The translations under genes were made by a program, and so were the position numbers. This document shows positions 1 through 16,492 of a stretch of 64,000 nt of DNA, in pieces (position 1 is the stretch's first letter; every line of letters begins with the position of its first letter). This DNA is from an uncultured bacterium (GTDB taxonomy: Bacteria; Acidobacteriota; Thermoanaerobaculia; Multivoradales; JAHZIX01), in contig CBDUPA010000002.1 of NCBI GenBank assembly GCA_965368975.1, positions 64,001-128,000 of the forward strand, written 5' to 3'. The notes under the pieces are model-generated. The model was not told the origin of the DNA. It was given only the letters and a program-made list of their open reading frames with translations, and did no database searches.

Positions 1-637
1 CACGGCTCTGCCGCTCCGGCACCTTGATCTCGAAGTCGTCGGCGGTCAACACGGCGCTCTCGACCGCCTCGCCGATCCCTGGCAGCGGTCGCAACTCCAG
101 CTTCAGCATGCGCTGCAGCGCGTCGACATCCAGCGGCTCGGGAAAGACCAGCGTCACGCTCTCGACCGGCCCGAGGCCACTCGCGCCCTGCTGCGGCAAC
201 GTCTCGACCGGTGCCGCCATCAACGTGGTCAAGCGCGTCCGCGAGCCGTCGACGGTCCAGGTGAAGCGCGCCAGCGGCGGCCACGGCTCGGCGGGGCGGA
301 ACTGCAGCGTGCGAGTGTCGAGCCAGGTGAAGGCACCGGGGTGCGCCGGTTCGACGTCGACGTAGCGACGCGCATTGTCCTCGGGCACTCCGCCTTGCGC
401 CGAGGCCCCTGCTTGGGCGGGACCGGTGTCCTGGGCGAAGAAGATGGTCACGGGATCCCAGCGGCGCAGGAAGTGGTCCGGTACGACGACGGTACCGCGG
501 GCAGCGGCCGGACGCTGCACCGTGCCGGCTGGCGGCACCTGCGCCGAGGCAGGCAGCGTCAGCGAGGACAGCAAGGGCAGCAGCAGAGCGGCGCCGGCAA
601 CGGCGAGCGACGAGCGGACAGGCGACGGGCGGTTCAT
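1..637 (-). CDS. Secreted protein, probable alpha-2-macroglobulin-family N-terminus (partial, runs off left edge)
   Basis: ATG at 637 overlaps the upstream stop (ATGA). Open to the window edge: MNRPSPVRSSLAVAGAALLLPLLSSLTLPASAQ (signal peptide) ...VVPDHFLRRWDPVTIFF...GAFTWLDTRTLQFRPAEPW, typical of bacterial A2M N-terminal Ig-like regions. Thioester motif lies outside the window. Confidence 0.65.
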   Translation of the reverse strand, partial: MNRPSPVRSSLAVAGAALLLPLLSSLTLPASAQVPPAGTVQRPAAARGTVVVPDHFLRRWDPVTIFFAQDTGPAQAGASAQGGVPEDNARRYVDVEPAHPGAFTWLDTRTLQFRPAEPWPPLARFTWTVDGSRTRLTTLMAAPVETLPQQGASGLGPVESVTLVFPEPLDVDALQRMLKLELRPLPGIGEAVESAVLTADDFEIKVPERQSR

Positions 638-3600
638 CGGGAAGCTCCTTCGGAAGCGTCTTCGGCCAGGTCCAGGTACTGACGGATCACGTCCGGTGGC
701 GGTCCTGTCGACGGGCGATCGAGACCGACGATAGCGGGGCGAGCTCGCGCCGGCGCGGCATCGGCGGGCAGGGTCAATGCGAGCAGGTATGTTCCGGGCG
801 CCAAGCGCGGCATCAGCACGACGCCCTGGCCTGGCTGGTTGCGACCCAGCTGATCTCGTCCCAACTCGCTGCCGGCGGCGTCCAGCACGCGGACCTCGAC
901 ACGGTCGGAGTCTGCACGCACGCCGACTCCCACCTGGACGTCCTCCTCGGTGCCACTGGCGGAGACCGGCACGGTGAACAGGAAGGCCCTACTGCCGCCG
1001 GCCGGCAACAGGACCTCTGGCCCTAGCCCCTCGCCGATCTCACTCACCGAGGTGACGGTCAGCTCCGCCGGGGCGGTCAAGGTGCCGTCCAGGGCACGCA
1101 GCCACAGCTCGTGGACGCCGGCAGCGAGGTACGCATCGACGGCGATCCCCTGGGGATGCAGGGCGAGGCGCTCTCCCGAGCTGGAGACGGAATCGGCTGC
1201 AGACCCTACGCGCATGATTGTCAGACCAGGTTGGTCGGAACGCACGTGGATCAGCGAAGCCTGAGGCAGATCGAGGAGCAGGCGCCGCGCGATGCCATCC
1301 AGGGGTACGACAGCCGGCGCCTGGACTGCGACCGACGGCGGCGGACCGTCCGGGAACCAGCTGCCGCGACTCGGCGGGACGCCATCGCGCTCGATCCAGG
1401 CGACGACGCGGCCCGGACCGTGCGGCAGAGACAAGCGCGCCGGCACGCCGTGCAGTGCCAGCTCGGTGCCGCGCTGCACACGGCCGCTCTGGTCCACGAG
1501 CTGAGGGGCGTCCAGCAGTTGGGTGGCGCCGCTGGTGCCCAGGATGTGCAGCACGCCCTCGGCCGCGGGTACGTCGAGTTCGCGCGTGCCCCGGCGTGTG
1601 AAAGCTTCGCTGAAGGGGGCATCCACCGTCAGCCGTGCTTCCACCCTCGAAACGTGGGTACCGGAGGCTGAGTCCGTGAGCGCCAGCGGGAAGACCTCGA
1701 TGTCGTAGCGATGGGCGCCTTCGGCGGTGTGCAGCAGGGTCAGACGGTCGGCCGGGCTGTCGACGGTCGCTTCGAACGGCGCGCCACCGGCCCAGTGGAC
1801 GCTGAGCACGTCGTCGCCGCGCGACAGCACCGCCAGCAGCTCACGACCGAGAGCCAGACGCAGCTGCTTGGTGCCGTCCGGCAAGGCAAAGCCGCGCGCG
1901 GCGACGCCCGCCAGGCCACCTTCGAGACGACCCAGGAACGGCGGCTCGTAGACCACGTCGCGGTAGCGCAGTTGGTGCAGGCGGACGTCGGTCAGCTCGC
2001 TGTCGCCCGCGGCCCACCCAGCCACGGGACGCGGTGCGCCCTGGAGTTGGACGGCGAGAGCACTGCCGGCGCTGCTGCCACCTCCATGGGCGGCCACCGC
2101 ACGTGGCGGCTCACTGCCGAAGGTGAGCACGGGCTGACCTATGACGGAGCGAGCCAGCGCCACGACGGGGCCGCCTCGGCCGTCCTGCGCGGCCAGGTCG
2201 AGCACCATCGGCGCCTCTGGACGGCCGTCCTCGCCAGCTGCGGGCAGACGCACGACGCGCGTCGATGCGGCACCGGCAGGCAGGCGTAAGCGCTCGACGG
2301 TGACTCCTCCAGAAGTAACCCCTCCAGCGGTACCCGTGCTACTCCACTGCACCAGGTGCACATGTTCACCCGACGCCGGCACCAACGTCTCGCCATCGAC
2401 CGGCACACACGGACGGTGCACTTCGGTGCACGTTAGCAACTCACTGCCTGTGACGCGGAAGCTACCTGGACGCTGCAGGACGAGGCTGGCGACGCGCGCG
2501 GACGGTGCCCCGGCCCCCATGCCTTCGACTGCTTCGAGCGTCACTCGGTCCTGCTCACCGCGAGCCTGCTCCCTGCGTCCCCGCGGCTTGACCGCCGAGG
2601 CGGTCAGGTCGACGTTGCCGGGGCGGCGATCGAGCGACCACAGGCGCAGGCGGTAGGTGGCCGAGGAGTCTTCGGGCAAGGCAACCGCGACGCGTGGCGT
2701 GCGGCCCTGGTCTTGGGCCAGCGTGCGCCAGGTACCGTCCTGCTGCGCTTCGAGCGCCAGGCCGAGCGTCTGGTCGGCACCGGCAGCGGCCAGCAACAGG
2801 GAGGCCGAGCGCGGCAGCTGCAACGGCAGCAACCACATCTGCTCGTCGAGCGCGACGCGGGTCGAGGCCGGCAGGGTCAGGGGATTGGCCTCGTGCTCGC
2901 TCGGCCGGCTGACGCTGACACGGGTCTTGGCCGTGGCGGTGCCGACCGGATCCAGACGCAAGCCGTAGCGGCCGGGCTGCAGTGTCGCGGCGAGCTGGAA
3001 GTTCCAATCCTCGGGGTGGTCGTCATAACTGGCGATCAGACGGCTGCCCTGGTAGAGACGGGCACGGACGTCGGCCGCACCGAAGGAGCGCACCTCGATC
3101 AAGCCGGCCTCACCGATCACCAGCGGCATGTCGACCGGTGCCTGCAACTCGCGGGTAATCCCCTCGGTCAGCTCGTAGGGGCTTACACGCACCCAGTACG
3201 GCACGCGGTTGTTGCGCCGCACGCAGGTCACGGCCAGGCGGTAGCGACCGGCTTCCAGTTCACCAGACCAGCCGCGCTCGGGCGGCACGATCAGCTGCGC
3301 TCGCCAGGTACCGTCCACCCAGCGCTGCAGCTCGCCGGTCATCTCGTCGGTGAGGGAAATCTGGATCGTCAGGTCGGCCGGGATCTCGACCTCCCACACG
3401 TCCGGTGTGCGCTCCGATTGCTCGGGCTCCTGCCACAGGTGGCGCACCGGTACGTCGAAGGGCAGCGCGTGCGGGCCGTGACCGCTGAACTCGGGTGGAT
3501 CGGGCACCTCTTCCAGCAACGTCACGGCACGGTTGTCGACCGACTCCGGCAGCACGACCAGGCGGTAGTCACCGGCGTCGAACAAGCGGTTCCACTCGGT

Positions 3601-6192
3601 GGGCTGGTTCGGCGCCAGAATCGGCCAGCCATCGCCGTCCTCCAGGCGGCCGCGGAAGACCCGCTGCAAGCCGTAGGACAAGAGGCGGTAGCGGCCATCC
3701 TCCGGAATTTGGAAGCGATAGACCACTGCTTCGCCAGCCGGTAGGCGCAGGCGCGCTGGCACACCGGGCACCAGCTGACCGCCGTCGATCAGCGGCGACT
3801 GACGCAGGTGCAGTCCCAGGTGGCCCTCGGAAGCACCGACCGTCGAGACGGATAGCTGGTAGTCGCCCTCGCTGAGGAACTGCTGTACCAGGAAGTTGCG
3901 GCCGACTCCGTTCGAGCCCTGACGATCGAGCGACGTCACGACACGGCTGCGCAGGTTCCCCTCGGTGGCCAGCAGGCCGCTGCTCTCCAGGCGGTAGAGG
4001 GCCGGCTCGTTCGCCCGCACCAGGAAGGTTGCGCGCTCAGCGCCGAAGAGGTCGAAGAACTGGGGCTGCGCATCGACCAGCCGCGGAAAGTCGGGCAGCG
4101 ACGCCAGCGCGTCGCCGGGTAGCGGCGGTAGCGGCGATGTCGCCAGTAGCCGTTCGGGTACCAGCTCGAGGTTGTAGAGCTGCGTCTGGGTCAAGCCCTG
4201 CTCTAATGGGTCGCGCACCTGCACGGTGTGGGTACCCACCGGCACCTCGAGCACATCGCCCCAGGCCGTGCCGTCGAGCGACACCTGGAGTCGGGTCCCG
4301 GTCTCGGTCAGCGCCGTCAAACGACCCGGCTCGGCGGCACGGAACGGCACCTCGACGCTCTCGCCCGGGCGCTGTGCCAGCGGCAGCGCTCGCGCCAGAT
4401 CGAGCGGCAGACAGCGTAGCACCAGGCCGGAGTGGACCTCCGGCTGGTGATTGGGAAAGAGGGTGTAGGAGTGGTTGGGGTTCAGCCGTATGCGCCCAAA
4501 GCGCACCGCCGCACGCACCGGCTCCGCTTCGACCGTTCCCCGCGCGCCGACCAGGTCGAGCAGGGATGCCACCATGCCGGCGGGACGGACGGCAATGTCG
4601 AGGATGCCCTTCTTCTTCGGCCGCACCGTCAGCACGTAGTAGCCGGCGTCCAGATCCCAGGCGGCACCGGCAGCCCGGAACGGCGGCGGCTCGTACTCGC
4701 GCGGCGGATCGACCAGGAAAGGCTCGAAGCGGAACTCGGCCTCGACGCCGTCCGACAACACCTCGTAGCGACCGGTCTGGCGAACGCGTAGGTGCACCGT
4801 GAGGTCGTCCAGCAGGTTGCAGCGCCGCGCCCACGCTTGGTCGCCGCCGAGGTCGATGGCCTGTGCCAAGAAGGGCTCGCGGTCGAGGCCCTTGCCCGGT
4901 ATCCAGCGCGCGACGATCGCCGTAGCGTCGATCGCGTCACCGACCGGACCAGAGTGCACGGTCGACAGCCAGTACTCACCGCCGCGCCAGAAGCGATAGC
5001 GATCTCGCTGCTCGAAGTGCTGCAGCACGTAGGGCTGCCCCGCCGCCGCGCGCACGCTGATCACGCGGGGCTCACCCTCACGGTCTTCGTCACCATCGGT
5101 GCTGCCGGCGAAGCGGTTCTCAGCCTCCAGAGCCGGTAAGCGCAGCTCGGCCACCGGCGGTACCGAGTTCTTCTGAACTCGAGCGGCATCGGCATAGTCG
5201 GGCTCGTAGTACGGCCCGGAAGACTCGAAGTCGTAGATCTTGAGGCTGGCGTCGATCGCCTCGGGCACTTCGATGCGGAAGAAGTTGGTACGCCGCGGCA
5301 CCAAGAAGCGGTCAATCCCAAAGGGGGACACCTCCAGGCTGCGCCGGCCCGCCTCGGCCAGGCGTGGGATGCCAGCGCGCAGATGGAACGGGCGGCTGCC
5401 GTCGTCCTCGGCCCAGGGCTGACCGACGCCGCCGTAGGCACTGAGCAGATACAGGCCGGGCTGCAGGAAAGTCGTGATCCGATGCACGGCCAGCGGCTGG
5501 CCCGGCTTCGGCATCACCACCTCGAGATCGCTGTCCGTGTCGAGCAGCCAACTGCCGTCCTGCCACAGACGCAGGTCCTCCAGATGACGACCCGCCGCTT
5601 CCAGGTAGACCCACCTCGCCCGCTCCACCGCCAACCAGTAGGAACGGTACTCGAAGTCGTCCAGGCTGCTCGAGAGCAGCTTGAGGTCAAGCAATCGCGG
5701 CGGCCCGCCACCGGTAGCCGCGCCGGCGGCATTGGCCTCCACGAACTCGTGAACGCGCAGCGTCGCCTGCTCCTGCGACGGACCGTCGACGACGCTTCTC
5801 TCCCCAGGCGACTCGGGGCCAAAGACAATGACCTTGTAGCTACCCCGGTCGAGGAACAGATCGAGCCGGCCGTCCTGCTCCCCCGCAACACCCACGACCT
5901 CTCCGGGGCCGGCCATCCGGTCGATCAGCTGCAGCGCCGCGCCGCGCGGGCTCTCGACGGTCAGTGCGTAGCGGCCGAAACGCTCGATGTGCAGCAGCAC
6001 CTCCCGGCGGCCCCAGGCCGAGACCTGCGCAGGCTCCAGCCGCGCCTCGGCCATCACCTCGGTGCCGGCCGCCGTCGAGCCAGTGCCCATCGAGCCAGTG
6101 TCCATCGAGCCTGGAAAGTACTGCGCCGACACCGGGTTGGGCACCAGCCAGAGCATGCAAGCAGCAGCCGTCAAGATTCGAGTCGCGCGCAT
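634..6192 (-). CDS. Giant secreted hypothetical protein (~1852 aa) with repeated PPC-like beta-sandwich modules
   Basis: AGGAGG RBS before ATG 6192; signal peptide MRATRILTAAACMLWLVPNPVSA; recurring L-x-x-G-x-Y-x-L motifs (LDRGSYKV, LQPGLYLL, LDAGYYVL, LSEGDYQL, FDAGDYRL, LEAGRYRL, LQPGRYGL, LAPGTYLL). Confidence 0.8.
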   Translation of the reverse strand: MRATRILTAAACMLWLVPNPVSAQYFPGSMDTGSMGTGSTAAGTEVMAEARLEPAQVSAWGRREVLLHIERFGRYALTVESPRGAALQLIDRMAGPGEVVGVAGEQDGRLDLFLDRGSYKVIVFGPESPGERSVVDGPSQEQATLRVHEFVEANAAGAATGGGPPRLLDLKLLSSSLDDFEYRSYWLAVERARWVYLEAAGRHLEDLRLWQDGSWLLDTDSDLEVVMPKPGQPLAVHRITTFLQPGLYLLSAYGGVGQPWAEDDGSRPFHLRAGIPRLAEAGRRSLEVSPFGIDRFLVPRRTNFFRIEVPEAIDASLKIYDFESSGPYYEPDYADAARVQKNSVPPVAELRLPALEAENRFAGSTDGDEDREGEPRVISVRAAAGQPYVLQHFEQRDRYRFWRGGEYWLSTVHSGPVGDAIDATAIVARWIPGKGLDREPFLAQAIDLGGDQAWARRCNLLDDLTVHLRVRQTGRYEVLSDGVEAEFRFEPFLVDPPREYEPPPFRAAGAAWDLDAGYYVLTVRPKKKGILDIAVRPAGMVASLLDLVGARGTVEAEPVRAAVRFGRIRLNPNHSYTLFPNHQPEVHSGLVLRCLPLDLARALPLAQRPGESVEVPFRAAEPGRLTALTETGTRLQVSLDGTAWGDVLEVPVGTHTVQVRDPLEQGLTQTQLYNLELVPERLLATSPLPPLPGDALASLPDFPRLVDAQPQFFDLFGAERATFLVRANEPALYRLESSGLLATEGNLRSRVVTSLDRQGSNGVGRNFLVQQFLSEGDYQLSVSTVGASEGHLGLHLRQSPLIDGGQLVPGVPARLRLPAGEAVVYRFQIPEDGRYRLLSYGLQRVFRGRLEDGDGWPILAPNQPTEWNRLFDAGDYRLVVLPESVDNRAVTLLEEVPDPPEFSGHGPHALPFDVPVRHLWQEPEQSERTPDVWEVEIPADLTIQISLTDEMTGELQRWVDGTWRAQLIVPPERGWSGELEAGRYRLAVTCVRRNNRVPYWVRVSPYELTEGITRELQAPVDMPLVIGEAGLIEVRSFGAADVRARLYQGSRLIASYDDHPEDWNFQLAATLQPGRYGLRLDPVGTATAKTRVSVSRPSEHEANPLTLPASTRVALDEQMWLLPLQLPRSASLLLAAAGADQTLGLALEAQQDGTWRTLAQDQGRTPRVAVALPEDSSATYRLRLWSLDRRPGNVDLTASAVKPRGRREQARGEQDRVTLEAVEGMGAGAPSARVASLVLQRPGSFRVTGSELLTCTEVHRPCVPVDGETLVPASGEHVHLVQWSSTGTAGGVTSGGVTVERLRLPAGAASTRVVRLPAAGEDGRPEAPMVLDLAAQDGRGGPVVALARSVIGQPVLTFGSEPPRAVAAHGGGSSAGSALAVQLQGAPRPVAGWAAGDSELTDVRLHQLRYRDVVYEPPFLGRLEGGLAGVAARGFALPDGTKQLRLALGRELLAVLSRGDDVLSVHWAGGAPFEATVDSPADRLTLLHTAEGAHRYDIEVFPLALTDSASGTHVSRVEARLTVDAPFSEAFTRRGTRELDVPAAEGVLHILGTSGATQLLDAPQLVDQSGRVQRGTELALHGVPARLSLPHGPGRVVAWIERDGVPPSRGSWFPDGPPPSVAVQAPAVVPLDGIARRLLLDLPQASLIHVRSDQPGLTIMRVGSAADSVSSSGERLALHPQGIAVDAYLAAGVHELWLRALDGTLTAPAELTVTSVSEIGEGLGPEVLLPAGGSRAFLFTVPVSASGTEEDVQVGVGVRADSDRVEVRVLDAAGSELGRDQLGRNQPGQGVVLMPRLAPGTYLLALTLPADAAPARARPAIVGLDRPSTGPPPDVIRQYLDLAEDASEGASR

Positions 6193-6351
6193 CGGAGACC
6201 TCCTGCCGAGCTCTCTGTCACCTGCCGAGAGCCGTCCTTCAGTGGGTGTATCACTGCCACACAGGATAACGCACTCCGGCTCGCCGGAATGCCCTGCGAG
6301 AGGTCCGAATTCACAGCGCAGGATCCCGTGCCACCGAGGGTTGCTTACAAT

Positions 6352-6987
6352 GTGGTGGTGGTTGCCGAAGCTCCGACGAGACACGCTCCAGAACCGGCCT
6401 CGCAAGAGGATCCGGACCGCGCCCTGCTGGCCAGAACGGCGCAAGGGGACGACGGAGCTTTCGGTGAGTTCGTCGAGCGCCACCAGCGCCGACTGCTGCG
6501 CCTGTGTGAGCGCATGCTGGGAGACGCCGAGGAGGCGCGCGACGCGGCGCAGGAGATCTTCCTCAAGGTCTACCGCAAGGCCGGCAGCTTCCAGCCGAAG
6601 GGCAAGGTGTTCACCTGGCTCTACCGCATCGCCACCAACCACTGCCTCAACAAGCTACGGCGGCGTAAGATCGTGCGCTTCATCGGCCTCGAAACAACCC
6701 GTGCCGGTAACAGCCACGGCAACGAGGACGACACCTATACCCTCGACCCCGCCGATGCCGGCCCCGATCCAGAAGCGGCCCTCGAAAGCCGGCGGCGCTG
6801 GCAGCGAGTGCGGCGGGCACTGGCCAAGCTGCCCGAGAGCCAACGCACGGTGGTAGTGCTCATCCGCTTTGAAGGTCTGTCCTACCGGCAAGCCGCTGAA
6901 GTGTTGGGTACCACCGAAGGCGCCGTCGACAGCCGCCTGGTGCGTGCCATGCGCAGCTTGCAGGCAGAATTGGAGCCCGAAACGTGA
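6352..6987 (+). CDS. ECF RNA polymerase sigma factor
   Basis: Region 2 EARDAAQEIFLKVY...FTWLYRIATNHCLNKLRRRK; region 4 LPESQR...LSYRQAAEVLGTTEGAVDSRLVRA. Start is one of the GTGs at 6352-6358. Confidence 0.9.
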   Translation: MVVVAEAPTRHAPEPASQEDPDRALLARTAQGDDGAFGEFVERHQRRLLRLCERMLGDAEEARDAAQEIFLKVYRKAGSFQPKGKVFTWLYRIATNHCLNKLRRRKIVRFIGLETTRAGNSHGNEDDTYTLDPADAGPDPEAALESRRRWQRVRRALAKLPESQRTVVVLIRFEGLSYRQAAEVLGTTEGAVDSRLVRAMRSLQAELEPET

Positions 6988-7170
6988 GCCCTGCCATGAA
7001 CCGGGATGATCCTGACCCGAGAGCGCAGGAAAGCGACGAGTCGAGGGTTGCAAAGATAGGAGAAGGGATCAGGACGTGTGCCAGAAGGCGATAGAGTTAC
7101 TGACGCACCCACACCGGTGCTTCTATAGAGACACTCCAGAATGGGGCGGCACCACCGATCGGAAACTGCG

Positions 7171-7668
7171 ATGAACAACTCCTCACCACAACCACAAGAC
7201 GCCGAGTTGCTGCGCCTGACCCTGCGCCAAGCGCACGGAGAGGCTACCGCCGAAGAGCTGGGCCAGCTCGACGCCTGGATGAAGGCGGACCCCGAGCTGA
7301 TAGCTGCCGTGCAGCGGCTGCAAGCCAGCTGGCAGCAGCTCGAACCGCCGCCCGCAAGTCCAGTGCCGGTCGGCTTCAGCACACGCGTCGTGGCGCGGGC
7401 CCGCGCCCTGCGACGCGGCGAAGACGGTTTCTCCTGGAAGCTGGCACCGACGTGGCTGCGCGCCGCCACCGCCGCGGCCCTGGTTACCGGCGTGGCGCTC
7501 GGTGCTGGCGTCGGAACGCTGGTCGCTGTACCGAGCCAGCCCGAGAGCTGGGGCCTGGAACAGCCGATGCAGCTCTCCACCACGCTGTGGACCTCGGACG
7601 CCGACGACGAAACCCCGTTACCGTGGGAGACAGAGGCGAGCACTGGCGGCGAGGAGACCCCGCAGTGA
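7171..7668 (+). CDS. Putative membrane anti-sigma factor
   Basis: Directly after the ECF gene; N-terminal 'GEATAEELGQLDAWMKADPE' anti-sigma-like helices and one TM segment (AATAAALVTGVALGAGVGTLVAV). Confidence 0.7.
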   Translation: MNNSSPQPQDAELLRLTLRQAHGEATAEELGQLDAWMKADPELIAAVQRLQASWQQLEPPPASPVPVGFSTRVVARARALRRGEDGFSWKLAPTWLRAATAAALVTGVALGAGVGTLVAVPSQPESWGLEQPMQLSTTLWTSDADDETPLPWETEASTGGEETPQ

Positions 7669-8342
7669 AACGCTGGGGGCTGACCCTGGCCCTGGTCCTG
7701 TCTCTAGGCATGAACGCCGGCATCCTGGCGATGATCGCCGTCCACCGGCTGGGTTCAACGACCGCGGAGCCGCCCCAGATGCAAGGCACGCCGCAGCAGC
7801 ACCTCGAGCAGCTGGCCGACTGGCTGCGCCTTGACGGCGACGAGCGCCAGGACTTCCTGGAACTACAACAGCGCTTCTTCCGCGGCATGCAGGAGAATGG
7901 TCAGGAGATTCGTCGTCTGCACGATCGCCTGCGCCGGGAAGTGACTTCACGGCAGCCGGACCGCAGCCAGGTCGACGAGATCGTCCAACAGCTGGGCACC
8001 CGCTTCGAAGCGCGTGAGCGCTTGATGGTCGACACGGTTCTCGATTCGCGCCAGTTGCTCAATCGGCGCCAGCAGCTGCAGTACCAAATGTTCTTCGCGC
8101 GCGCCCTGCGCCGCATGATGGCTGGCGACGGCCAGCGTCCTGAGGGCGAGTTCGGGCCGGGCAGGTTCGGCCCCGGGGGCCGGCGACCGGGCGCCATGGG
8201 ACCTCCACGCCGCGGCTTCGACGAGCCCGAAGGTAACGGCCGCTTCCGGGATCGCCCATTCGCCGGTCCCTCCCGACCCGAAGAGGGGCCACCCCCACCC
8301 CTCGTCGAGCCGCCCACGTCTTCGGAGCCACCCGTCTTCTGA
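7665..8342 (+). CDS. Spy/CpxP-like periplasmic heavy-metal-sensor family protein
   Basis: GTGA overlap; LVLSLGMNAGIL N-terminal anchor; LRLDGDERQ and QLLNRRQQ (LTxEQ-like) helical repeats; Gly/Pro-rich tail. Confidence 0.75.
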   Translation: MKRWGLTLALVLSLGMNAGILAMIAVHRLGSTTAEPPQMQGTPQQHLEQLADWLRLDGDERQDFLELQQRFFRGMQENGQEIRRLHDRLRREVTSRQPDRSQVDEIVQQLGTRFEARERLMVDTVLDSRQLLNRRQQLQYQMFFARALRRMMAGDGQRPEGEFGPGRFGPGGRRPGAMGPPRRGFDEPEGNGRFRDRPFAGPSRPEEGPPPPLVEPPTSSEPPVF

Positions 8343-8393
8343 CCTGGCTCCCCTAGCGCCCAGGCCAGCTGCGATAGACTCGGTCGTCTTCGT

Positions 8394-8436
8394 TCGACAT
8401 CTTCCGACAGGGATCAACGATGTCGAAGGATGTCGA
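8394..8436. promoter_or_regulatory. Putative enhancer (UAS) for a sigma54 activator
   Basis: TCGACATCTTCCGACA-N11-TGTCGAAGGATGTCGA: 16-bp inverted repeat (14/16 match), each arm with two CGACA units; about 100 bp upstream of a -24/-12 element. Confidence 0.65.
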
Positions 8437-8508
8437 GAAGCTACCGAACCAACGCACAAGAGCAGCTCAGCAACCTGCATCTGGCTTGCCCGCGGTGGAT
8501 TCGAAACC

Positions 8509-8524
8509 TGGTATGGCCCTTGCT
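8509..8524 (+). promoter_or_regulatory. Sigma54 (-24/-12) promoter
   Basis: TGGTATGGCCCTTGCT matches TGGCAC-N5-TTGCW with exact GG-N10-GC spacing; ~60 bp before ATG 8583. Confidence 0.75.
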
Positions 8525-8582
8525 CTACATGTTCGACGTCTGCAACGAACGTCCAAACATTCTTAGAGAGAGGGTCTAGACA

Positions 8583-9098
8583 ATGCAGAACCTTCTGACC
8601 ATGACAGCCCCGTCCACCAAGACTCCAACCACCGAGAACCTGCCCGGTCGCCCAGCGACCTTCCGCCGTCAAGACATCATCGTCCGCTTCAGTCTGCGGG
8701 ACGGCGAAGGCCACTTCGAGTTTCTCACCAACGGGCAGCCGCCGACAGAGCAGTTGATCCTGGACATCGAAAGCGACCAAGAGACCCTCGTCTTCTACCT
8801 CGAAGGCGTGGATGGCCCCGTGGCCTTCCTCAGCAACCCGTTTGTCTGGGTCGATTGGCAGGAAGGCACCAACGAGCCCGGCTTACGACCAATCGCGCAA
8901 CCGGTGAACTTCACCTGCTTCGCTCAGGGGGTCTGCTGCGTCATCCAGGACACCAATCCCCTGCCGCCCCGGGGCTCGGTAGCGTGGGAACCCGAGCAGC
9001 GATTCCACTTCTTCCTGCAGGTTCTCGCCGACGACCGGATCTATACGTCGAAGGATCCGTCGGTGGTCAACAAGGAGCCCCCGCCTGGCGGTCCTTGA
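8583..9098 (+). CDS. Small beta-rich protein with C-terminal DP motif (DP-EP/DUF1888-like)
   Basis: 171 aa, no signal peptide, ends RFHFFLQVLADDRIYTSKDPSVVNKEPPPGGP; preceded by GAGAGGG RBS and a sigma54 promoter. Confidence 0.6.
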   Translation: MQNLLTMTAPSTKTPTTENLPGRPATFRRQDIIVRFSLRDGEGHFEFLTNGQPPTEQLILDIESDQETLVFYLEGVDGPVAFLSNPFVWVDWQEGTNEPGLRPIAQPVNFTCFAQGVCCVIQDTNPLPPRGSVAWEPEQRFHFFLQVLADDRIYTSKDPSVVNKEPPPGGP

Positions 9099-9117
9099 CC
9101 GTGATCCCGCGCTGGCT

Positions 9118-11781
9118 CTAATTCTCGGCCTGCAGCGTCTCGATACCCTGCTCGCGCAGCGGATCGAACCAGGGTAGGGAAAACCAGCGAACGTCGAAGT
9201 CCTCGAGAGCACGCTGAGCGTGCTCTCGGGCGAGTTCGTATTCGCCGACCAGGGTGTAGACCAAGGCCGCCTCGAACGCTACCTGCGTCGCTCGCGGGGC
9301 TCGCTGCAGCGCCAGCTCTACAGCCGCACGCGCCTCGGAGCCACGGCCCAAATGAGCCAAGGCTTGTGCCTTCACCGTCAGCATTTGCCAGTGGGACGCG
9401 GCCGGATCTCGAGCCACCGAGGTCACGACCCTCTCGTAGAACAGCCTGGCCTCCGGATGTCGCCCCAGGTGCTCGAGGGTATCAGCGAGGTTGAGTGCCA
9501 CCATCGGGTTGTTGGGCTCCCGAGCCAGCGCACGGCGCGCCACTTGCTCGGCTTCCTGCCATCGATCGAGCAGCATGAAGGTGATGCTCAGGTTGGTCAG
9601 CTCGGTCATCTGAGGCGAACTCTCGACCAGCTGTTGGTACAGTTCGAGTGCCCGTTCCAGAGATCCGAAGGTCATCTCCAGCTGTGCCAGCAAGGACTGC
9701 GCCGCGTAGTATCCAGGAGACCGCCGGAGCAACTCGTCGAGATGAGCGCGCGCGGCGGCATATTCACCCAGGGCCATCTCCAGCTGAGCGAGCTTGAACA
9801 GGTGGTGGCGCGAGGGCTGCTGCTGAACCGCCTGCCGCATCCACCGGATGGCTTGCGCTGAACGACCTTGGTGCTGGTAGAGGCTGGCCCGACGCATCAG
9901 TGTCTGGCTGTCTCCAGGTTGCAGCCGCGCGAGCTGTTCCAAGCTCTGCTCCGCTACCGCTGTTTGCTCAGCCTTGAGCCCGACATCGAACCGGACCATC
10001 AGCGGCCGAGGATCACCAGGAGCCAGCTCCTCGGCCTGCTCGAGAAGCTCGAGCGCAACGTCCAGGTCGCTCGCGTCGCGCCGCTCGTTGAAGCGATAGA
10101 GACGCAACTGGGCATCCAGCAAATAGGCTTCCACGAAACGCGGCGAGCGACGGCGGATACCTGCCAGGCGCTCGAGAACGCGATCGATCGACAAGGCCGA
10201 GCCTTCGAGTTCCGTGAAGCGGGTATAGAGCTCGAGAAACTCTTCGTAGTCGGGTTCGGACACCAGCAAGCCTGGCTGCCGGGTGCGCGCTGGATGCGAC
10301 GGATAGGCAAGCTGCAAGTAGCTTTCCAGCACCTCGGGCAAGGCTCGGGGACGCTCACGCAACACCGCCAGCCGCTCCGTCCACAGAAGACTTCCGTCAT
10401 ATCCGGAAATACGGCGCAAGACCAGGTTGCAGGACGCTGTCGGGCAGTGCAGCTGTGATGTAAAGACCTCGTCCGCGGCGGTCGAGCGAGCGATCTCCAG
10501 GGGCGTGCCCTCGAGGTCGCCCATTTGCTCCGGGGGAAGCACCGCCAGGCCTTCTCGGCCGAGCAGGTTGCGTAGCAAGGCCAGCTCCAAGCTCGACGCC
10601 AGTTGCGCCTCTTCGCCGAGCGTCGCCTGCGTCGTCACTTCAGGCGGCAGAACCGCGACGTAGAGCGGCGGCGGTGCTTCTCGATGCAACCACCAGGCGC
10701 CAGTACCCGTCAGCAGCGCGGCCAGCAAGGCGGCCAACATCCAGACCACCGGACGCTTCCACGCCGGGCGCTCCTGGCGTGGCTCCGTCTTCGAGTGGAA
10801 GATGACGGTCGTCGACGACGGCGAGCCGGCACCGACGAGCGTCGCCTGGTTCGCGTCCCAGGTCGGCTGATCGATCGCCCACCGCTGCGCATCGTCCGCG
10901 ATGGCTTCGAGAGCACGGATGCCCGAGTCGCTCTCGTCGCTCGATAGCGGCGTCAGCGAGCTGATTCGCTGCAGCTCGGCGAGCACCGCATGAGCGCTCT
11001 CGGGTCGCCGCGGCGGGTCCTTCTCCAGCATGTGGTCGAGCAATGCGGACAGGTCGCGCGGCAAGTCGGACACGACATCGCTCGCCGATATCTGCTGCTG
11101 CGTGCAGATCCGGGTCAACATGTCCACCGGATTGCCGGCAGCGAAAGGATGGTGGCCGGTGACCATGCGGTAGAGCAAGATGCCGAGGGCGAAGAGATCC
11201 GAGCGGACATCGAGATCCTGGCCACGTGCCTGCTCGGGGGACATGGCAGCGTAGGTCCCGAGCACGCCACCGCCGTGCGACAAGGGCTCCGTGTCATCGC
11301 GCGGATCGAGACTCTTGGCCAGACCGAAATCCAGGATCTTGGCGTGCCCGACCTCGGTGACCATCACGTTCTCGGGCTTCAGGTCGCGGTGCAGAATGCC
11401 ACGCGCATGGGCGGCGGCCAAGCCGGAGGTGATCTCACGTCCCAGGCGCAGTGCGCGGCGTAGCGGCAACCGTTTCCGGTGCAGCAGCACCGCCAGCGTC
11501 TCGCCCTCGATGAACTCCATGACGATGGCGTCGCCTCCCGCCGTCTCCAGGACGTGGAAGATTTGCACCGTCGCGGGATGGCTGAGCGCGGCCGCCGCCT
11601 TGGCTTCACGACGGAACCGTTGGCGCGCTTCGGGACGGCCGGCGGCCTCCGGCCGAATGTACTTGACGGCGACTCGACGCTCGAGTTGCTCGTCGTACGC
11701 CAGGTAGACTTCGCCCATACCACCGGCGCCCAGCCGGCGTTCGAGGCGGTAGGGGCCGATACGGTCCGGATCGGGCGGCAC
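9118..11781 (-). CDS. Transmembrane Ser/Thr protein kinase with TolB-like and TPR C-terminal region
   Basis: LGAGGMGEVY, VAVK, HRDLKPEN, DFG, MSPEQ; TM WMLAALLAALLTGTGAWWL; YVAVLPP followed by many TPR helices. Confidence 0.95.
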   Translation of the reverse strand: MPPDPDRIGPYRLERRLGAGGMGEVYLAYDEQLERRVAVKYIRPEAAGRPEARQRFRREAKAAAALSHPATVQIFHVLETAGGDAIVMEFIEGETLAVLLHRKRLPLRRALRLGREITSGLAAAHARGILHRDLKPENVMVTEVGHAKILDFGLAKSLDPRDDTEPLSHGGGVLGTYAAMSPEQARGQDLDVRSDLFALGILLYRMVTGHHPFAAGNPVDMLTRICTQQQISASDVVSDLPRDLSALLDHMLEKDPPRRPESAHAVLAELQRISSLTPLSSDESDSGIRALEAIADDAQRWAIDQPTWDANQATLVGAGSPSSTTVIFHSKTEPRQERPAWKRPVVWMLAALLAALLTGTGAWWLHREAPPPLYVAVLPPEVTTQATLGEEAQLASSLELALLRNLLGREGLAVLPPEQMGDLEGTPLEIARSTAADEVFTSQLHCPTASCNLVLRRISGYDGSLLWTERLAVLRERPRALPEVLESYLQLAYPSHPARTRQPGLLVSEPDYEEFLELYTRFTELEGSALSIDRVLERLAGIRRRSPRFVEAYLLDAQLRLYRFNERRDASDLDVALELLEQAEELAPGDPRPLMVRFDVGLKAEQTAVAEQSLEQLARLQPGDSQTLMRRASLYQHQGRSAQAIRWMRQAVQQQPSRHHLFKLAQLEMALGEYAAARAHLDELLRRSPGYYAAQSLLAQLEMTFGSLERALELYQQLVESSPQMTELTNLSITFMLLDRWQEAEQVARRALAREPNNPMVALNLADTLEHLGRHPEARLFYERVVTSVARDPAASHWQMLTVKAQALAHLGRGSEARAAVELALQRAPRATQVAFEAALVYTLVGEYELAREHAQRALEDFDVRWFSLPWFDPLREQGIETLQAEN

Positions 11782-11791
11782 CGGATGCGCT

Positions 11792-13516
11792 CTACTTCCG
11801 CGTCCGCGGTGTGTCCGCCGGGGCTTGGCCCAGATCTAGCGAGAGGCCAAAGTGCTTCATACGGCGTCTCAAACCTTGCTTGGAAACTTCCAGCTCGTCG
11901 ACCATGGCGTCGAGGTTGCCGCGGCAGCGAGCCAGGCTCTGCTCGATTTCGTCTCGATCGAGATCCGCAGCTTTGCGAATGCCAGGAATCTGATGGATCA
12001 GATCATACAGCGACGGACGCGGGATCCCCAGCTGACGCGCCGCGTCCTGGATCCGCCAGCGCTGCTCACGCAGTGCGGCGAGCACCTCTTCCTGGCGCAG
12101 GTCCGAAGGCCGGCGCGTGGGCGCGGATGCAGTGGCGGGCGTGGGCCTCGACGGCCGGAGCGGCGACACCCCTGACCCATGCTCGGCTCTTGACCGGCGC
12201 TCCGCAGTACGGCCGCAAGCCGGCACGTCGATTTCGGCCAGCAGGTTCTCCAACTGCGACGACGGACGCAAGCGCGACTCGCCACGGCCGGCGATCACCA
12301 ACTGGCGCACGACGTTGCGCAGCTGCCGGACGTTGCCCGGCCAGTGGCAGACGGCCAAGCGCGCCACCAGTTCGGCAGGCAACCACGGCGATCCCCCAGG
12401 TGTCGTTTCCAGCTTGTGCGTCTCGTGCAGCACTTCCAGTTCGAGACGCAGGAAGTGGCGCAGCAGGCGCCCGAAATCCTCGCGCCGGGCGCGCAGCGGC
12501 GGGATGCGGATCTCGTAGCCCTGCAATCGATGCAGCAACGGCGCGCGGAACCTCTGCCCTGCCACCGCCGCTTCTAGGTCGGCATCGGTAGCGGCGAGCA
12601 GCCGTACATCGGCCTGGAAGGCCTCGGCGGCGCCCAGTGGCTGCACCTCGCCGGTCTCCAGCGTACGCAGCAGCATCGCCTGCACTTCCTCCGGCGTCTC
12701 GCCGACCTCGTCCAGGAACAAGGTGCCTTGACGCGCCTTGCGGAAGTAGCCGTCGCGCGCCCGATCGGCGCCGGTGAAGGCCCCTTTGCCCGCACCGAAG
12801 AGTTCGGCGGCGGCCAGCGCCGGCGGTAGCGAAGCCATGTTGAGCGCGACAAACGGCCGGTCCCGGCGCGGGCTCGCCGCGTGCAGTGCGCTCGCCACCA
12901 CTTCCTTGCCGGTCCCGGTCTCACCGCGCAGCAAGACGGGAACCACCAGATCGGCCAGGCGCTGAATGTCCTGGCGCACCTGGCGCATGGCCGGACTCTC
13001 TCCAATCAGTCCGTGCCGTGGCAACAGCTGCGAGCTGACCGGGTCGACCGTGTGTAGTAGCAGGACAACGCGACCGGCGAGCAGCAACACCACGCCGTCG
13101 AGTAGAGCCGCAGTATCGAAGACCCTGGTCTCGCGCACGACTTCGTCGTCGACGTGCACCTCGGTTCGACTCGAGCGGGTGTTCAGCTCGATTCCCGCTG
13201 GGGTGGCGCGCAGCAGCAATGGTGAGCGACTGATCCGCGGGTCGGCCAGCGGCCTCACTTCGCCACTGCCCGGAGGAGCAAACAGCGGCTCCAGCCGCGA
13301 CAAGCGCACCTCGCGGTCCTCCGTGCCGCGGGCCCCACCCGCCGTACTAGCCCTTTGGAGCTGCGGCAGCGCGACGCGCTCACCGATCCGGTGCAAGTCG
13401 GGATGATAGAGAACAGTCAGCCCGGGGACACGGAGATCCCGGTGACTTTCCCAACCGCTCTGACGAGTGTGTGTCCGCGATTGTGTTTCACCATTCCACG
13501 TGGCGATGTGAGACAT
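11792..13516 (-). CDS. Sigma54-dependent enhancer-binding protein with FHA-like N-terminus and two C-terminal HTHs
   Basis: GETGTGKE, GAFTGA, LFLDEVGE, FRAPLLHRL, WPGNVRQL; HTH1 QDAARQLGIPRPSLY, HTH2 DAMVDELEVSKQGLRRR; N-terminal LSR...DPRISRSP degenerate FHA-like segment. Confidence 0.92.
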   Translation of the reverse strand: MSHIATWNGETQSRTHTRQSGWESHRDLRVPGLTVLYHPDLHRIGERVALPQLQRASTAGGARGTEDREVRLSRLEPLFAPPGSGEVRPLADPRISRSPLLLRATPAGIELNTRSSRTEVHVDDEVVRETRVFDTAALLDGVVLLLAGRVVLLLHTVDPVSSQLLPRHGLIGESPAMRQVRQDIQRLADLVVPVLLRGETGTGKEVVASALHAASPRRDRPFVALNMASLPPALAAAELFGAGKGAFTGADRARDGYFRKARQGTLFLDEVGETPEEVQAMLLRTLETGEVQPLGAAEAFQADVRLLAATDADLEAAVAGQRFRAPLLHRLQGYEIRIPPLRARREDFGRLLRHFLRLELEVLHETHKLETTPGGSPWLPAELVARLAVCHWPGNVRQLRNVVRQLVIAGRGESRLRPSSQLENLLAEIDVPACGRTAERRSRAEHGSGVSPLRPSRPTPATASAPTRRPSDLRQEEVLAALREQRWRIQDAARQLGIPRPSLYDLIHQIPGIRKAADLDRDEIEQSLARCRGNLDAMVDELEVSKQGLRRRMKHFGLSLDLGQAPADTPRTRK

Positions 13517-13598
13517 ACGTTGCAGTTTAGAGCCAGCGATGAAGGATGGGCAACCTCCGTGGCACTTGCCCACGCTGGGTTTGTGGTAGAAAGCGCTC

Positions 13599-14264
13599 AT
13601 GTCGAATCGTTCGACCCCCTCTCGCCCGGCTTCGGAAGCAGATCCCCTGCGTGCCTTGATCGGTCAGGCTCTGGACGATGTCCTGGCCGCGACCCAACGG
13701 GCACCCGAGGGAGCCGCGACGGCGTCCGCTGCAGCTGGATCTGTTACCGCTGGGGCCATGGTCGCCGACAGAGTCTCGGGGAGCTCCGTCTCGACGATGT
13801 CCGCTGCACCGGCGGTCGCCATCGGTGCCGACCACGGCGGTTTCGCGCTCAAGGAGCGCCTGATGGTCCTGCTGCGCCAGCGCGGCTGCACGGTCACCGA
13901 CTGTGGCACCTACTCGACCGACAGCTGCGACTACCCCGACTTCGCGCACGAAGTCGCGCGCCGTGTCGCGGACGGCAGCTGCCGCTGGGGGATCATCGTC
14001 GACGGCGCCGGTATCGGCTCGTCGATGGTCGCCAACAAGGTGCCGGGCGTGCGCGCCGCGCTGTGCTACGACGTCTCGAGCGCGCGCAACAGCCGCGAGC
14101 ACAACCACGCCAACGTGCTGACGCTGGGCGCCAGCCTGATCGGCGCGGGCCTGGCCGAACAGATCGTCACAACATGGCTCGATGCCCCCTGGGGCGAGGG
14201 ACGCCATGCCCGCCGAGTCGATAAGATCACCGACGTGGAACGCCGCTACCTGGTCTCCAGGTGA
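13599..14264 (+). CDS. rpiB: Ribose-5-phosphate isomerase B with N-terminal encapsulation-peptide-like extension
   Basis: IGADHGGFALKE, DYPDFA, DGAGIGSSMVANKVPGVRAA, REHNHANVL, EGRHARRVDKI; N-terminal amphipathic helix PLRALIGQALDDVLA. Confidence 0.92.
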   Translation: MSNRSTPSRPASEADPLRALIGQALDDVLAATQRAPEGAATASAAAGSVTAGAMVADRVSGSSVSTMSAAPAVAIGADHGGFALKERLMVLLRQRGCTVTDCGTYSTDSCDYPDFAHEVARRVADGSCRWGIIVDGAGIGSSMVANKVPGVRAALCYDVSSARNSREHNHANVLTLGASLIGAGLAEQIVTTWLDAPWGEGRHARRVDKITDVERRYLVSR

Positions 14265-14275
14265 GGAACTAGACC

Positions 14276-15137
14276 ATGGACCGCGAAGCTCTGATCGATG
14301 CCGTGACCGCGCGCGTACTGTCAGCGGTCGGCTGTAGCACCAAGGACGCCTCCGCCGCTGACCGCTGCACCGACTGCACCGGCGGCTGTGCCGCCAGCTG
14401 CGCTTCCAAGGTGCGCGCCGTGATGGGCGCCGGCGCCGGCCGCGTCAGCTTCCGCGGCAGCGGCGGCGACGTCCCCTCCGACCTCGCCCGCACCATCGAC
14501 CACACCCTGCTCAAGCCCGACACCACCCCGGCACAGATCGACAAGCTGTGCTACGAAGCCCGCGAGTACCGATTCGCGGCGGTGTGCGTCAATCCCGTCT
14601 GGGTCAAGCGCGCCGTCTCGCGCCTGCGCGGCAGCAGCGTCACCGTGGCTTCGGTGGTCGGCTTCCCGCTCGGCGCCAGCACGCCCGAGATCAAGGCCAT
14701 GGAGGCACGCCGAGCCCTGCGCGACGGCGCGCGCGAGATCGACATGGTGCTCAACGTCGGCGCCCTGAAGGCCGGCGACTACGACCTGGTCGAACGCGAC
14801 ATCGCCAAGGTCACCGACGCCTGCAACGAAGTCGGGGCGCTCAACAAGGTGATCCTCGAGACCGCTTTGCTGAGCGACGAAGAGAAAGTCATCGCGTGCC
14901 GGCTGGCGGTCGCCGGCGGTGCGCACTACGTCAAGACCTCCACCGGCTTCGGCGGCGGCGGTGCGACCGTCTTCGATATCGCCCTGATGCGCGAGGCAGT
15001 GGGTCCCAAGCTCGGTGTCAAAGCCTCGGGCGGCGTCAAAAACCGCGGCGATGCCATCGCCATGATCGACGCCGGTGCCACCCGCATCGGCGCTTCGGCC
15101 GGAATTCAAATCGTCAGCGGATCCAAGGGAGGAGCCA

Positions 15138-15151
<14 letters not shown>
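14276..15151 (+). CDS. deoC: Deoxyribose-phosphate aldolase with encapsulation peptide and Cys-rich linker
   Basis: [45 protein letters not shown]; N-terminal [14 protein letters not shown]. Confidence 0.95.
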
Positions 15152-15809
<658 letters not shown>

Positions 15810-15905
15810 CAGCTGAAGACTGCTAGCTGAAGACTGAACGAACACCCGAAGTGCAATCTTCGAACTGCGACATATCCGAGAGCGACTACCTGAGGAGTAA
15901 GAACG

Positions 15906-16196
15906 ATGGCCGAAGCACTAGGCATGATTGAAACCCGCGGCTTCACCGCGATGGTCGAAGCGTCCGACGCCATGGTCAAGGCGGCGAAGGTCGAGTTGGT
16001 GGGCTACGAGCGCATCGGCGGCGGCTACGTCACCGCCATCGTGCGCGGCGACGTGGCGGCGGTCAAGGCTGCCGTCGAGGCTGGCGTACGTGGCGCCGAG
16101 AAGGTCGGCGAAGTGGTTTCCACCCACGTCATCGCTCGTCCGCACAGCAACGTCGACAGCGTCCTGCCCCTCGGCCGTCCGTCCGAGGAGAGCTGA
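15906..16196 (+). CDS. BMC shell hexamer (BMC-H, EutM/PduA/CcmK family)
   Basis: ALGMIETRG...[13 protein letters not shown]...[20 protein letters not shown]...HVIARPH. Confidence 0.97.
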
Positions 16197-16201
16197 GACC
16201 C

Positions 16202-16492
16202 ATGCATCTGGCACGGGTGGTCGGCACCCTGGTCGCCAGCCGCAAGGAAGAGCGCCTGGAAGGACTGAAATTCCTGGTGCTGCGCCAGCTCGACGTCGAC
16301 GGCCAAGAAACCGGCGGCTCGTTGATCGCCAACGACGCCGTCGGCGCCGGGGTCGGTGAGGTCGTACTCTACGCCAGCGGCAGTTCCGCGCGGCAGACCG
16401 AGGCGACCCACGAGCGACCGTGCGACGCCGTCGTCATGGCGATCGTCGATACCTGGGAAGTCGGCGGCACCGAGGTCTACCGCAAGGACTGA
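16202..16492 (+). CDS. BMC vertex pentamer (BMC-P, EutN/CcmL family)
   Basis: [15 protein letters not shown]...[12 protein letters not shown]...GSSAR...DAVVMAIVD. Confidence 0.95.

Follow-up and report, generated by a model that had tools for sequence, protein, structure and literature searches.

A candidate Ser/Thr kinase–sigma54 signalling cassette with a cryptic FHA domain in its activator and a small SO1698-like product

To describe a compact signalling locus in an uncultured member of the Thermoanaerobaculia, we analysed a 64,000-nt stretch of contig CBDUPA010000002.1 (positions 64,001 to 128,000; hereafter the window, with coordinates counted from its first letter), in which a membrane Ser/Thr kinase and a sigma54 activator (bacterial enhancer-binding protein) carrying a cryptic FHA domain are predicted to control a sigma54 promoter in front of one small gene. 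Open reading frame (ORF) calls place the small gene (171 aa) at 8583–9098 on the + strand, the kinase gene (887 aa) at 9118–11781 on the − strand and the activator gene (a 602-aa open frame) at 11792–13600 on the − strand, with the kinase/activator pair converging on the small gene. All three genes, the −24/−12 element and an upstream palindrome were located as reported in an initial annotation of this DNA. The activator end given there, 13516, corresponds to Met29 of the 11792–13600 frame, which is the likelier start codon since homologues align only from about residue 41 of the 602-aa frame. The activator stop codon and the kinase start codon are separated by 10 bases, so the two genes very likely form one operon; a sigma54 gene is present in the genome.

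We propose a chain running from the kinase through a Thr-tail/FHA switch to the activator ATPase and on to sigma54-dependent transcription, which we consider fairly likely as a whole. Briefly, an extracytoplasmic cue would act on the kinase, whose catalytic domain would lie in the cytoplasm and whose disulphide-type Cys pair and tetratricopeptide repeats (TPRs) would lie outside. The kinase would phosphorylate the co-transcribed activator, most likely on T39 of a disordered tail, and the activator's own FHA domain would bind phospho-T39, within the same chain or between subunits, as in GarA/OdhI and DgcB; this binding would relieve or promote assembly of the ATPase ring. Seated via two helix-turn-helix (HTH) motifs on four GACA/TGTC half-sites at 8394–8436, the activator would remodel sigma54 polymerase at 8509–8524 and turn on the 171-aa gene, whose SO1698-like product may self-cleave between Asp158 and Pro159. 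Domain identities, promoter and repeat motifs, conservation and co-location were computed; from these we infer phosphorylation, FHA–tail binding, DNA binding, sigma54 dependence and self-cleavage.

The activator carries an AAA+ sigma54-interaction domain (Sigma54_activat, PF00158, E 6.6e-58; residues 198–364; 12509–13009, − strand) in which Walker A (226–233), GAFTGA (273–278) and Walker B (294–301) are all intact, together with a Pfam match to the AAA lid and two Fis-type HTH motifs (residues 517–535 and 563–586; 11843–12052, − strand; HTH_8 in two stretches, E 2.2e-13). Pfam found no receiver domain in the activator, and these results agree with the intact GAFTGA, the paired HTH motifs and the lack of a receiver domain that had been read from the sequence. 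Residues 1–197 were left without any Pfam match. Within them, residues ~58–187 (13040–13429, − strand) are predicted to form a cryptic FHA domain, as judged from an alignment, a structure model and fold matches. The alignment (A3) comprised 13 activator N-domains from paralogues in the same genome and from related genomes, and gave a model with a predicted local distance difference test (pLDDT) value of 83. Every top Foldseek match of this model was an FHA domain (target-normalised TM-score 0.70–0.76), as were all 50 matches listed by VIA-align (Z 12.8 to 9.5), including ArnA (12.8), DgcB (12.7), GarA (11.9) and EmbR (11.9), with a root-mean-square deviation (rmsd) of about 2 Å over 92–107 residues. 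As modelled, the N-domain is an eleven-stranded beta-sandwich of the FHA fold, so that the "FHA-like" N-terminus of the initial annotation is borne out by fold. At the profile level, A3 matched one solved FHA domain (CT664, E 0.005), with LSRxP of the activators aligned to ISRQH.

FHA domains hold phosphothreonine in a pocket formed by the Arg of a GR loop, the Ser-Arg of an SRxH motif and the Asn of an NG turn. R102 and S124-R125-x-P127 are invariant in 13 of 13 sequences of A3, and R102, which sits 22 residues upstream of S124-R125, would correspond to the GR-loop arginine. The pocket Ser-Arg is kept; the invariant Pro takes the place of the canonical His, and Ser or Thr stands where the NG turn would have its Asn. 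Because of these two replacements, and because the Pfam FHA model does not match the N-domain (E ≤ 0.01), phosphothreonine binding by this domain is not assured, which weighs against the switch proposed here; likewise, none of 120 listed activator homologues had a precomputed FHA match. The same features would fit an FHA fold that has degenerated and lost the ability to read phosphothreonine, comparable to the FHA-like domains of the type III secretion proteins YscD and PscD, both of which were among the weaker Foldseek matches of the N-domain; the adjacent kinase would then have other targets, and the activator would answer another cue. We consider such a loss of function improbable, given that the FHA domains matched best by fold (DgcB, GarA, OdhI and EmbR) bind phosphopeptides, that the phosphate-pocket Arg and Ser-Arg do not vary, and that one Thr is conserved in an otherwise variable tail.

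This Thr lies in the segment before the first FHA strand, which is modelled as disordered and whose sequence varies apart from this one residue. In the window, tail comparisons single out E38-T39-Q40 (13481–13489, − strand), with T39 as the candidate phospho-acceptor. An acidic residue followed by Thr was found in the tails of 12 of 14 cassette activators. Furthermore, of the 101 database homologues with a long enough tail, 86 have a Thr at −22 to −18 relative to the first FHA strand, and [DE]T was present in 64 of 103 tails, compared to 16.5% of control windows from the same proteins. With the predicted fold, it is likely that the kinase controls the activator through this Thr and the FHA domain. 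The N-domain family comprises at least 281 protein clusters, and the named homologues come from Acidobacteriota and Thermoanaerobaculia metagenome-assembled genomes (MAGs). Many of them (P0018–P0133) are automatically named GlnG/NtrC two-component response regulators; the GlnG name is probably a systematic mis-annotation, the window protein and the aligned homologues having an FHA domain and not a receiver.

The putative upstream partner is a Hanks-type Ser/Thr kinase with a predicted receptor-type topology. Its catalytic domain (Pkinase, PF00069, E 9e-48, residues 11–265) contains the Gly loop, VAxK, HRDLKPEN and DFG motifs, all of which are invariant across 14 homologues, and is followed by a Ser/Thr-rich linker, the only hydrophobic span of the protein (345–365) and ~520 C-terminal residues. 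Within the C-terminal part, Pfam placed TPR families at ~600–800, and a Cys446/Cys451 pair is conserved among the homologues. The span is preceded on its N-terminal side by basic residues, which under the positive-inside rule puts the C-terminal part outside the cytoplasm; the Cys pair and the TPR part should accordingly be extracytoplasmic, and from this topology the TPRs may sense something outside the cytoplasm.

The kinase, activator and small gene recur as a unit. Across related genomes of the same order, we found the small gene paired with the kinase in 16 further loci, 13 of which also have the FHA activator; a neighbourhood check of the kinase, activator and small DP-motif gene triplet, as suggested in the initial annotation, was thus positive in related genomes and also in one gammaproteobacterial MAG. 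In the first sample, a small-gene profile (A2) was searched in 100 genomes of the same order and matched in 8 of them, and all 11 places were examined. Each of the 11 has a kinase gene beside the small gene; in 10 the two genes converge as immediate neighbours, and at L014 a gap of 1.9 kb separates them. Similarity to the kinase extends through the TPR part in nine. Eight of the 11 carry the FHA activator immediately upstream of the kinase; it is missing at L014 and L021, and the contig ends at L020, which could not be judged. In the same 100 genomes, the N-domain profile (A3) matched in 42 genomes at 147 places, including five in the window's own genome, with up to 21 per genome. As an observation on its distribution, the FHA-activator family is expanded in three genomes (G010 with 21 places, G038 with 19 and G081 with 13) and 58 of the 100 relatives gave no match to it.

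For the second sample, 40 of the 142 other FHA-activator places were chosen, mostly upper-ranked ones and omitting places already examined, and 12 kb was inspected at each. A kinase domain was present within the 12 kb in 24 of the 40 and lay directly downstream on the same strand in 12, and five had a small gene matching the small-gene profile (A4), always beside the kinase. By chance, a kinase domain would be expected at roughly one locus in seven, as estimated from ~97 kinase-domain tblastn matches in the 7.1-Mb own genome. The remaining 16 loci have no kinase domain within 12 kb; this counts against the proposed chain and is what a degenerate FHA domain would lead one to expect, whereas the kinase frequency in the other 24, set against the chance estimate, speaks for the phosphothreonine-reading domain that we favour.

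Beyond this order, a related-locus search with a closer small-gene alignment (A5) returned a single locus (L030), in a Lysobacterales MAG, where two tandem small genes are accompanied by genes for a methyltransferase, a TPR kinase and an FHA activator in the same relative order; this is probably a cross-phylum occurrence of the unit. The small gene (profile A4) was found in 2 of 400 other genomes across the phylum, both of the same order, and was absent from the 200 other genomes searched in the order of the Lysobacterales MAG. Across these samples the cassette is rare and patchily distributed.

The window's own genome holds five activators that share the N-domain, four of which adjoin a Ser/Thr kinase gene. 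At C2:25752–30715, the activator and kinase genes are followed by a convergent small ORF, as in the window, and this ORF (C2:30200) matches A4 with an hhalign probability of 96% (E 1.8e-9). On C18, the order is kinase, small ORF and activator, and a strict −24/−12 motif precedes the small ORF (C18:70196), whose only ties to the family are its position and a C-terminal DPTVVN motif (hhalign probability against A4, 1.9%). A further motif-bearing ORF (C1:814354) follows a kinase gene with no activator nearby. Two of the six matches of a six-frame motif search (C1:149186 and C18:113237) look like chance and were dropped, as were neighbouring ORFs on C7 and C24, which show no family match.

Several side observations concern these paralogous loci. 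The C2 cassette (L025, C2:20001–40000) is flanked by two further strict −24/−12 motifs pointing outward, of which one precedes two DUF2589 genes and the other an Rv2525c-like glycoside-hydrolase-like gene (stretches 4146–5692 and 10600–11517 of L025); beside the latter motif, a 14-bp unit containing TGTCCGGA occurs three times in tandem. In the C18 region (L026, C18:60001–80000), a strict −24/−12 motif that diverges from the kinase stands in front of the gene for a 1215-aa P-loop protein, which matches AAA_16 and nSTAND1 weakly (stretch 13730–17674 of L026), and a further strict motif follows the activator gene. The fifth FHA activator (L028, C38:15001–29745) has no adjacent kinase; on one side lies a repeat-built open frame of more than 3,500 aa, and on the other a −24/−12 motif faces a stretch without a convincing ORF, with a transposase-like ORF near the contig end. 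This locus may be an eroded cassette.

The cis elements of the window fit the predicted output of the activator. A predicted sigma54 −24/−12 promoter, TGGTATGGCCCTTGCT, lies at 8509–8524 on the + strand, upstream of the small gene and ending 59 nt before its ATG; it fits both GG-N10-GC and TGGYAY-N5-TTGCW and is the sole match to the latter within the 64-kb window. Judged by window statistics alone, the match is weak, a point against our reading: shuffled windows had a mean of 0.16 matches, and 14 of 100 shuffles had at least one. The motif becomes convincing from its genome-wide distribution, since 7 of the 32 strict matches cluster within 500 bp of the five FHA-activator cassettes (26.4 kb), compared to 0.12 expected, an expectation that ignores the difference between coding and intergenic composition. 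A sigma70-like promoter was sought in 8200–9300 and none was found. A search of sequencing runs for 8300–13600 listed no RNA data set, and the one DNA run that it listed held a 0.05 share of the words. We regard the −24/−12 promoter of the small gene as highly probable.

Upstream of the promoter, an inverted/direct repeat search identified a nested inverted repeat (8394–8436, unstranded) as the probable binding site of the activator. Its arms (8394–8409 and 8421–8436) are 88% complementary and contain CGACA at 8395 and 8405 and TGTCG at 8421 and 8431, with the half-sites 10 bp apart within each arm, and its centre lies ~95 bp upstream of the −24 element. A protein with two HTH motifs could seat one HTH on each half-site of an arm. 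Similar half-sites (TGTC[CG]/[CG]GACA) also cluster upstream of the orthologous small genes, 36–130 bp upstream of the −24 element. In a hexamer enrichment of 11 upstream regions from activator-bearing loci, CGGACA/TGTCCG was the top hexamer (16 occurrences compared to 2.5 expected, z about 9), with CGACAT-type words ranking after it; CCGACA occurred 13 times (2.7 expected) and in 8 of the 11 regions, and TGGCAC nine times (1.5 expected). Of the 13 loci with an activator, seven have a strict −24/−12 motif ahead of the small gene (L018, L022, L023, L024, L066, L069 and L077) and L016 has a near match, compared to no strict motif in the three loci without activator, so that the cis elements travel with the activator across genomes.

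This association is incomplete, and several loci count against it. Outside this genome, five of the 13 loci with an activator show neither a strict nor a near −24/−12 motif ahead of the small gene. The upstream region at L015 has palindromic repeats and no recognisable promoter; a strict motif is lacking ahead of the small gene at L103, L092 and the Lysobacterales locus L030; and L017 and L019 have neither −24/−12 nor repeats. Inspection by eye or with a relaxed scan found no −24/−12 element upstream of the small genes at L015, L017, L019, L030 and C2:30200. The earlier expectation that −24/−12 elements and CGACA/GGACA repeats would recur upstream of the small genes therefore holds for orthologous loci in part and fails at L017 and L019, where both are absent.

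Promoter and repeats might also be real and yet be served by another sigma54 activator, the neighbouring one regulating genes elsewhere. The genome has ~25 sigma54-activator matches, and sigma54 promoters of the paralogous cassettes point at the DUF2589 pair, the Rv2525c-like protein and the STAND-like nucleoside triphosphatase, all of which such an arrangement would accommodate. We hold it to be very unlikely: promoter, repeats and activator travel together across genomes, with no promoter at the activator-less loci; the half-site word is common to orthologous loci; and four half-sites paired 10 bp apart fit a two-HTH protein. The neighbouring activator quite probably serves the small-gene promoter.

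The product of the small gene belongs to a sparsely populated family. Pfam matched no family in the 171-aa protein, and its relatives are few (one at 82% identity and a handful at ~30%, 14 in total with profile search). The DP-EP family (PF08985) was unmatched in the window's small protein even at E ≤ 10 and was found nowhere in the whole genome; seven relatives scored 14.3–20.6 bits against PF08985, under the cut-off of 25, some of them over their full length. In a 20-sequence alignment of the family (A4), S156, D158, P159 and N163 are invariant (20 of 20), as is W89. The A4 profile matched 3njh_A (SO1698 of Shewanella oneidensis) with an E-value of 8e-6 (positions 16–140 of 144 against residues 12–126 of 128), aligning Y-T-S-x-D-P-x-I-I-N of the family to L-S-P-D-P-Q-I-I-N of SO1698 and thereby S156, D158 and P159 to S114, D116 and P117. 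The structure model (pLDDT 76.6) matched the same protein with a Z of 12.8 and an rmsd of 2.2 Å over 116 of 122 residues (Foldseek E 5.6e-7), followed by MakC/MakD (Z 9.4), PixA (Z 8.1) and then matches at ~5.5. The "DP-EP-like" label given earlier to this protein is upheld by profile (E 8e-6) and fold (Z 12.8), and the model makes it a distant DP-EP/DUF1888 relative with an SO1698-like beta-sandwich. In the ESM Atlas, the recognition value was under the usual mark and the nearest clusters carry PF08985 on 11–17% of their members, which we treat as a lead only.

The alignment points to a predicted Asp-Pro self-cleavage site at S156-K-D-P-S-V-V-N163 (codons 9048–9071, + strand), matched to SPDPQIIN of SO1698. 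Titles in the PDB name SO1698 an aspartic peptidase, and its deposited chains fall into two lengths: 119 residues for wild type, Y26F, K98A, P115A and Q118A, and 128 residues for D37A, S114A, D116A and P117A. These lengths fit self-cleavage at Asp116-Pro117 that needs Ser114, Asp116, Pro117 and Asp37, and SO1698 presumably does cleave itself there. The last residue (116) of the cleaved chains aligns with model residue 158. Against cleavage in the window protein, the equivalent of Asp37 is not clearly conserved, the aligned column being Asp or Glu in a minority of the 20 sequences; D61 of the window protein lies two residues from that column, which makes the alignment around it uncertain. Self-cleavage of the small protein at Asp158-Pro159 is, on this sequence evidence, a serious possibility that falls just short of probable. 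As side observations on the family, the relatives at L069 (7147–8037, − strand), L077 (7136–8185, − strand) and L092 (9119–9976, + strand) are about twice as long, with an extra N-terminal part, and that of L092 ends in a Gly-Ser repeat tail; the small proteins of L020 and L021 start with a signal-like hydrophobic segment.

The small gene also stands beside kinases that lack the activator, at L014, L021 and C1:814354 of the own genome. This weighs against a purely transcriptional role and ties the small gene to the kinase more widely than the transcriptional circuit does; besides being an output, the small protein may act as a partner of the kinase. If it were mainly a partner (a substrate, regulator or ligand), the sigma54 circuit would be a feedback arm added in some lineages, by which the kinase controls production of its own partner. 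This is possible, if rather doubtful. It would account for a kinase beside the small gene in 11 of 11 and 5 of 5 sampled loci, activator-less L014 and L021 among them, and in the Lysobacterales locus (with the methyltransferase gene between), and for the position of the own-genome ORFs C2:30200, C18:70196 and C1:814354, all beside Ser/Thr kinases; the signal-like N-termini at L020 and L021 would moreover put the small protein on the TPR side of the membrane. Most family members, including that of the window, nevertheless have no signal peptide and so could not meet TPRs outside the cytoplasm, and neighbourhood alone is no proof of binding. Complex predictions of the small protein with the kinase (small protein or its residues 27–171, kinase 1–300, kinase 366–887) scored 0.00 and were uninformative either way. 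A partner role is, in any case, compatible with the transcriptional chain that we favour and not exclusive of it.

A bolder combination of the two would be a closed loop, in which the sigma54-induced small protein self-cleaves at Asp158-Pro159 and one product feeds back on the TPR kinase. We regard this as a long shot. If true, the feedback product would be the 13-residue C-terminal peptide or the reactive aspartyl end of the larger fragment, it would reach the kinase in the cytoplasm or from outside, having been exported or set free by lysis of cells, and the cassette would act as a switch that amplifies itself, or as a sensor of kin damage, assembled from a Ser/Thr kinase and sigma54. On a wider view of the same long shot, the kinase and FHA-activator pairs, present in up to 21 copies per genome in this acidobacterial order, would make up a second family of two-gene phospho-signalling systems alongside the histidine kinase/NtrC-type pairs.

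The signalling logic of the favoured chain has precedents in Myxococcus FHA activators, PknG–GarA, PknH–EmbR and DgcB. The PknG–GarA/OdhI systems of Actinobacteria likewise combine a TPR Ser/Thr kinase with a protein in which a disordered Thr motif is followed by an FHA domain: the ETTS motif of GarA is part of an unstructured extension that precedes the FHA domain, and phosphorylation of its Thr switches GarA via its own FHA domain (PMC5448819), while the kinase PknG also uses a TPR domain (PMC8546545). The FHA domain of GarA aligns with the activator N-domain model at a Z of 11.9 and 23% identity over aligned residues, and the tail motif is [DE]-T-[QR] in the window family and ETTS in GarA. 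GarA is a stand-alone inhibitor of metabolic enzymes, whereas here the tail and the FHA domain are fused to sigma54 ATPase and DNA-binding domains; PknG is soluble, in contrast to the window kinase, which is predicted to span the membrane with its TPRs outside the cytoplasm.

Similarly, the FHA domain of DgcB from Bdellovibrio bacteriovorus is activated by a phosphopeptide from its own N-terminal region (PMC6733907). DgcB is among the best fold matches of the window FHA domain (Z 12.7) and has a GGDEF cyclase as its output domain, where the window activator has a sigma54 ATPase. EmbR of Mycobacterium tuberculosis is, like the window activator, an FHA-bearing transcription regulator (Z 11.9 to the model), and it is encoded next to PknH, the kinase that phosphorylates it. 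EmbR differs in being a SARP-type regulator that works with sigma70-type polymerase and has its FHA domain at the C-terminus, whereas the window activator is a sigma54 ATPase. FHA-bearing sigma54 activators have themselves been known since 2005, when Jelsbak, Givskov and Kaiser reportedly described such enhancer-binding proteins in Myxococcus xanthus, presumably fed by Ser/Thr kinases. These share the combination of FHA domain, sigma54 ATPase and HTH with the window activator, which differs in that its FHA domain escapes Pfam and that it is paired with a kinase gene and with a target promoter and candidate site in cis.

The likeness of the small protein to known systems is confined to its fold and motif. 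SO1698 (DUF1888/PF08985) shares the beta-sandwich and the aligned S-x-D-P motif; the window protein differs in ~25 extra N-terminal residues, longer loops, the lack of a PF08985 match and an Asp37 equivalent that is not clearly conserved. We know of no link of SO1698 to kinases or sigma54. Our literature searches found no paper on the function of the DP-EP/PF08985 family (in titles and abstracts) or on a regulatory context of the DP-EP/SO1698 fold; those directed at SO1698/DUF1888 turned up papers on MakD instead. MakC/MakD of Vibrio cholerae, the second-best fold match (Z 9.4, 7% identity over aligned residues), are small cytosolic accessory proteins that influence the expression of neighbouring genes and the secretion of their products (PMC11484084). 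Their genes form part of a toxin operon and do not adjoin a kinase or an activator gene.

The assertion in the initial annotation that this is not a described pathway therefore needs qualification. The cassette itself was not found in the literature, where searches for a kinase/FHA-activator cassette gave only type VI secretion and Myxococcus overview papers, and those for a GarA-like tail and FHA unit fused to a sigma54 ATPase gave none; its elements, by contrast, are familiar, given the FHA-bearing sigma54 activators of Myxococcus and the well-known kinase/FHA pairs PknG–GarA and PknH–EmbR. In nearly all accounts, sigma54 activators take their input from histidine kinases or small ligands, and to our knowledge no FHA-bearing one has been described for which the kinase, the binding site and the target are all known. 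Here, kinase, activator, candidate site and target gene lie within 5 kb and recur across genomes, and both the candidate acceptor Thr and the pocket residues can be named, so that a Ser/Thr kinase-to-sigma54 pathway becomes experimentally tractable. The predicted FHA domain of at least 281 activator protein clusters is invisible to Pfam, and a fold of the DP-EP/SO1698 type, to which no function is attached, gains a first regulatory context.

The neighbouring genes complete the picture of the locus. A 2002-aa ORF at 634–6642 (− strand) matched no Pfam family at E ≤ 0.01. Directly upstream of the small-gene promoter lies a + strand operon (6289–8342) with an extracytoplasmic function (ECF)-type sigma factor (Sigma70_r2/r4, 6289–6987), a weak anti-sigma match (7141–7668) and a sub-threshold Metal_resist match (7452–8342; 28.5 bits compared to a cut-off of 29.2), all assigned by Pfam. 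On the other side, a gene run divergent from the activator gene (13599–16492) encodes RpiB (13599–14264), a DeoC-family aldolase (14276–15151), BMC-domain shell proteins (15075–15809, a weak match, and 15906–16196) and EutN/CcmL (16202–16492); it looks like a bacterial microcompartment locus, presumably of the sugar-phosphate type.

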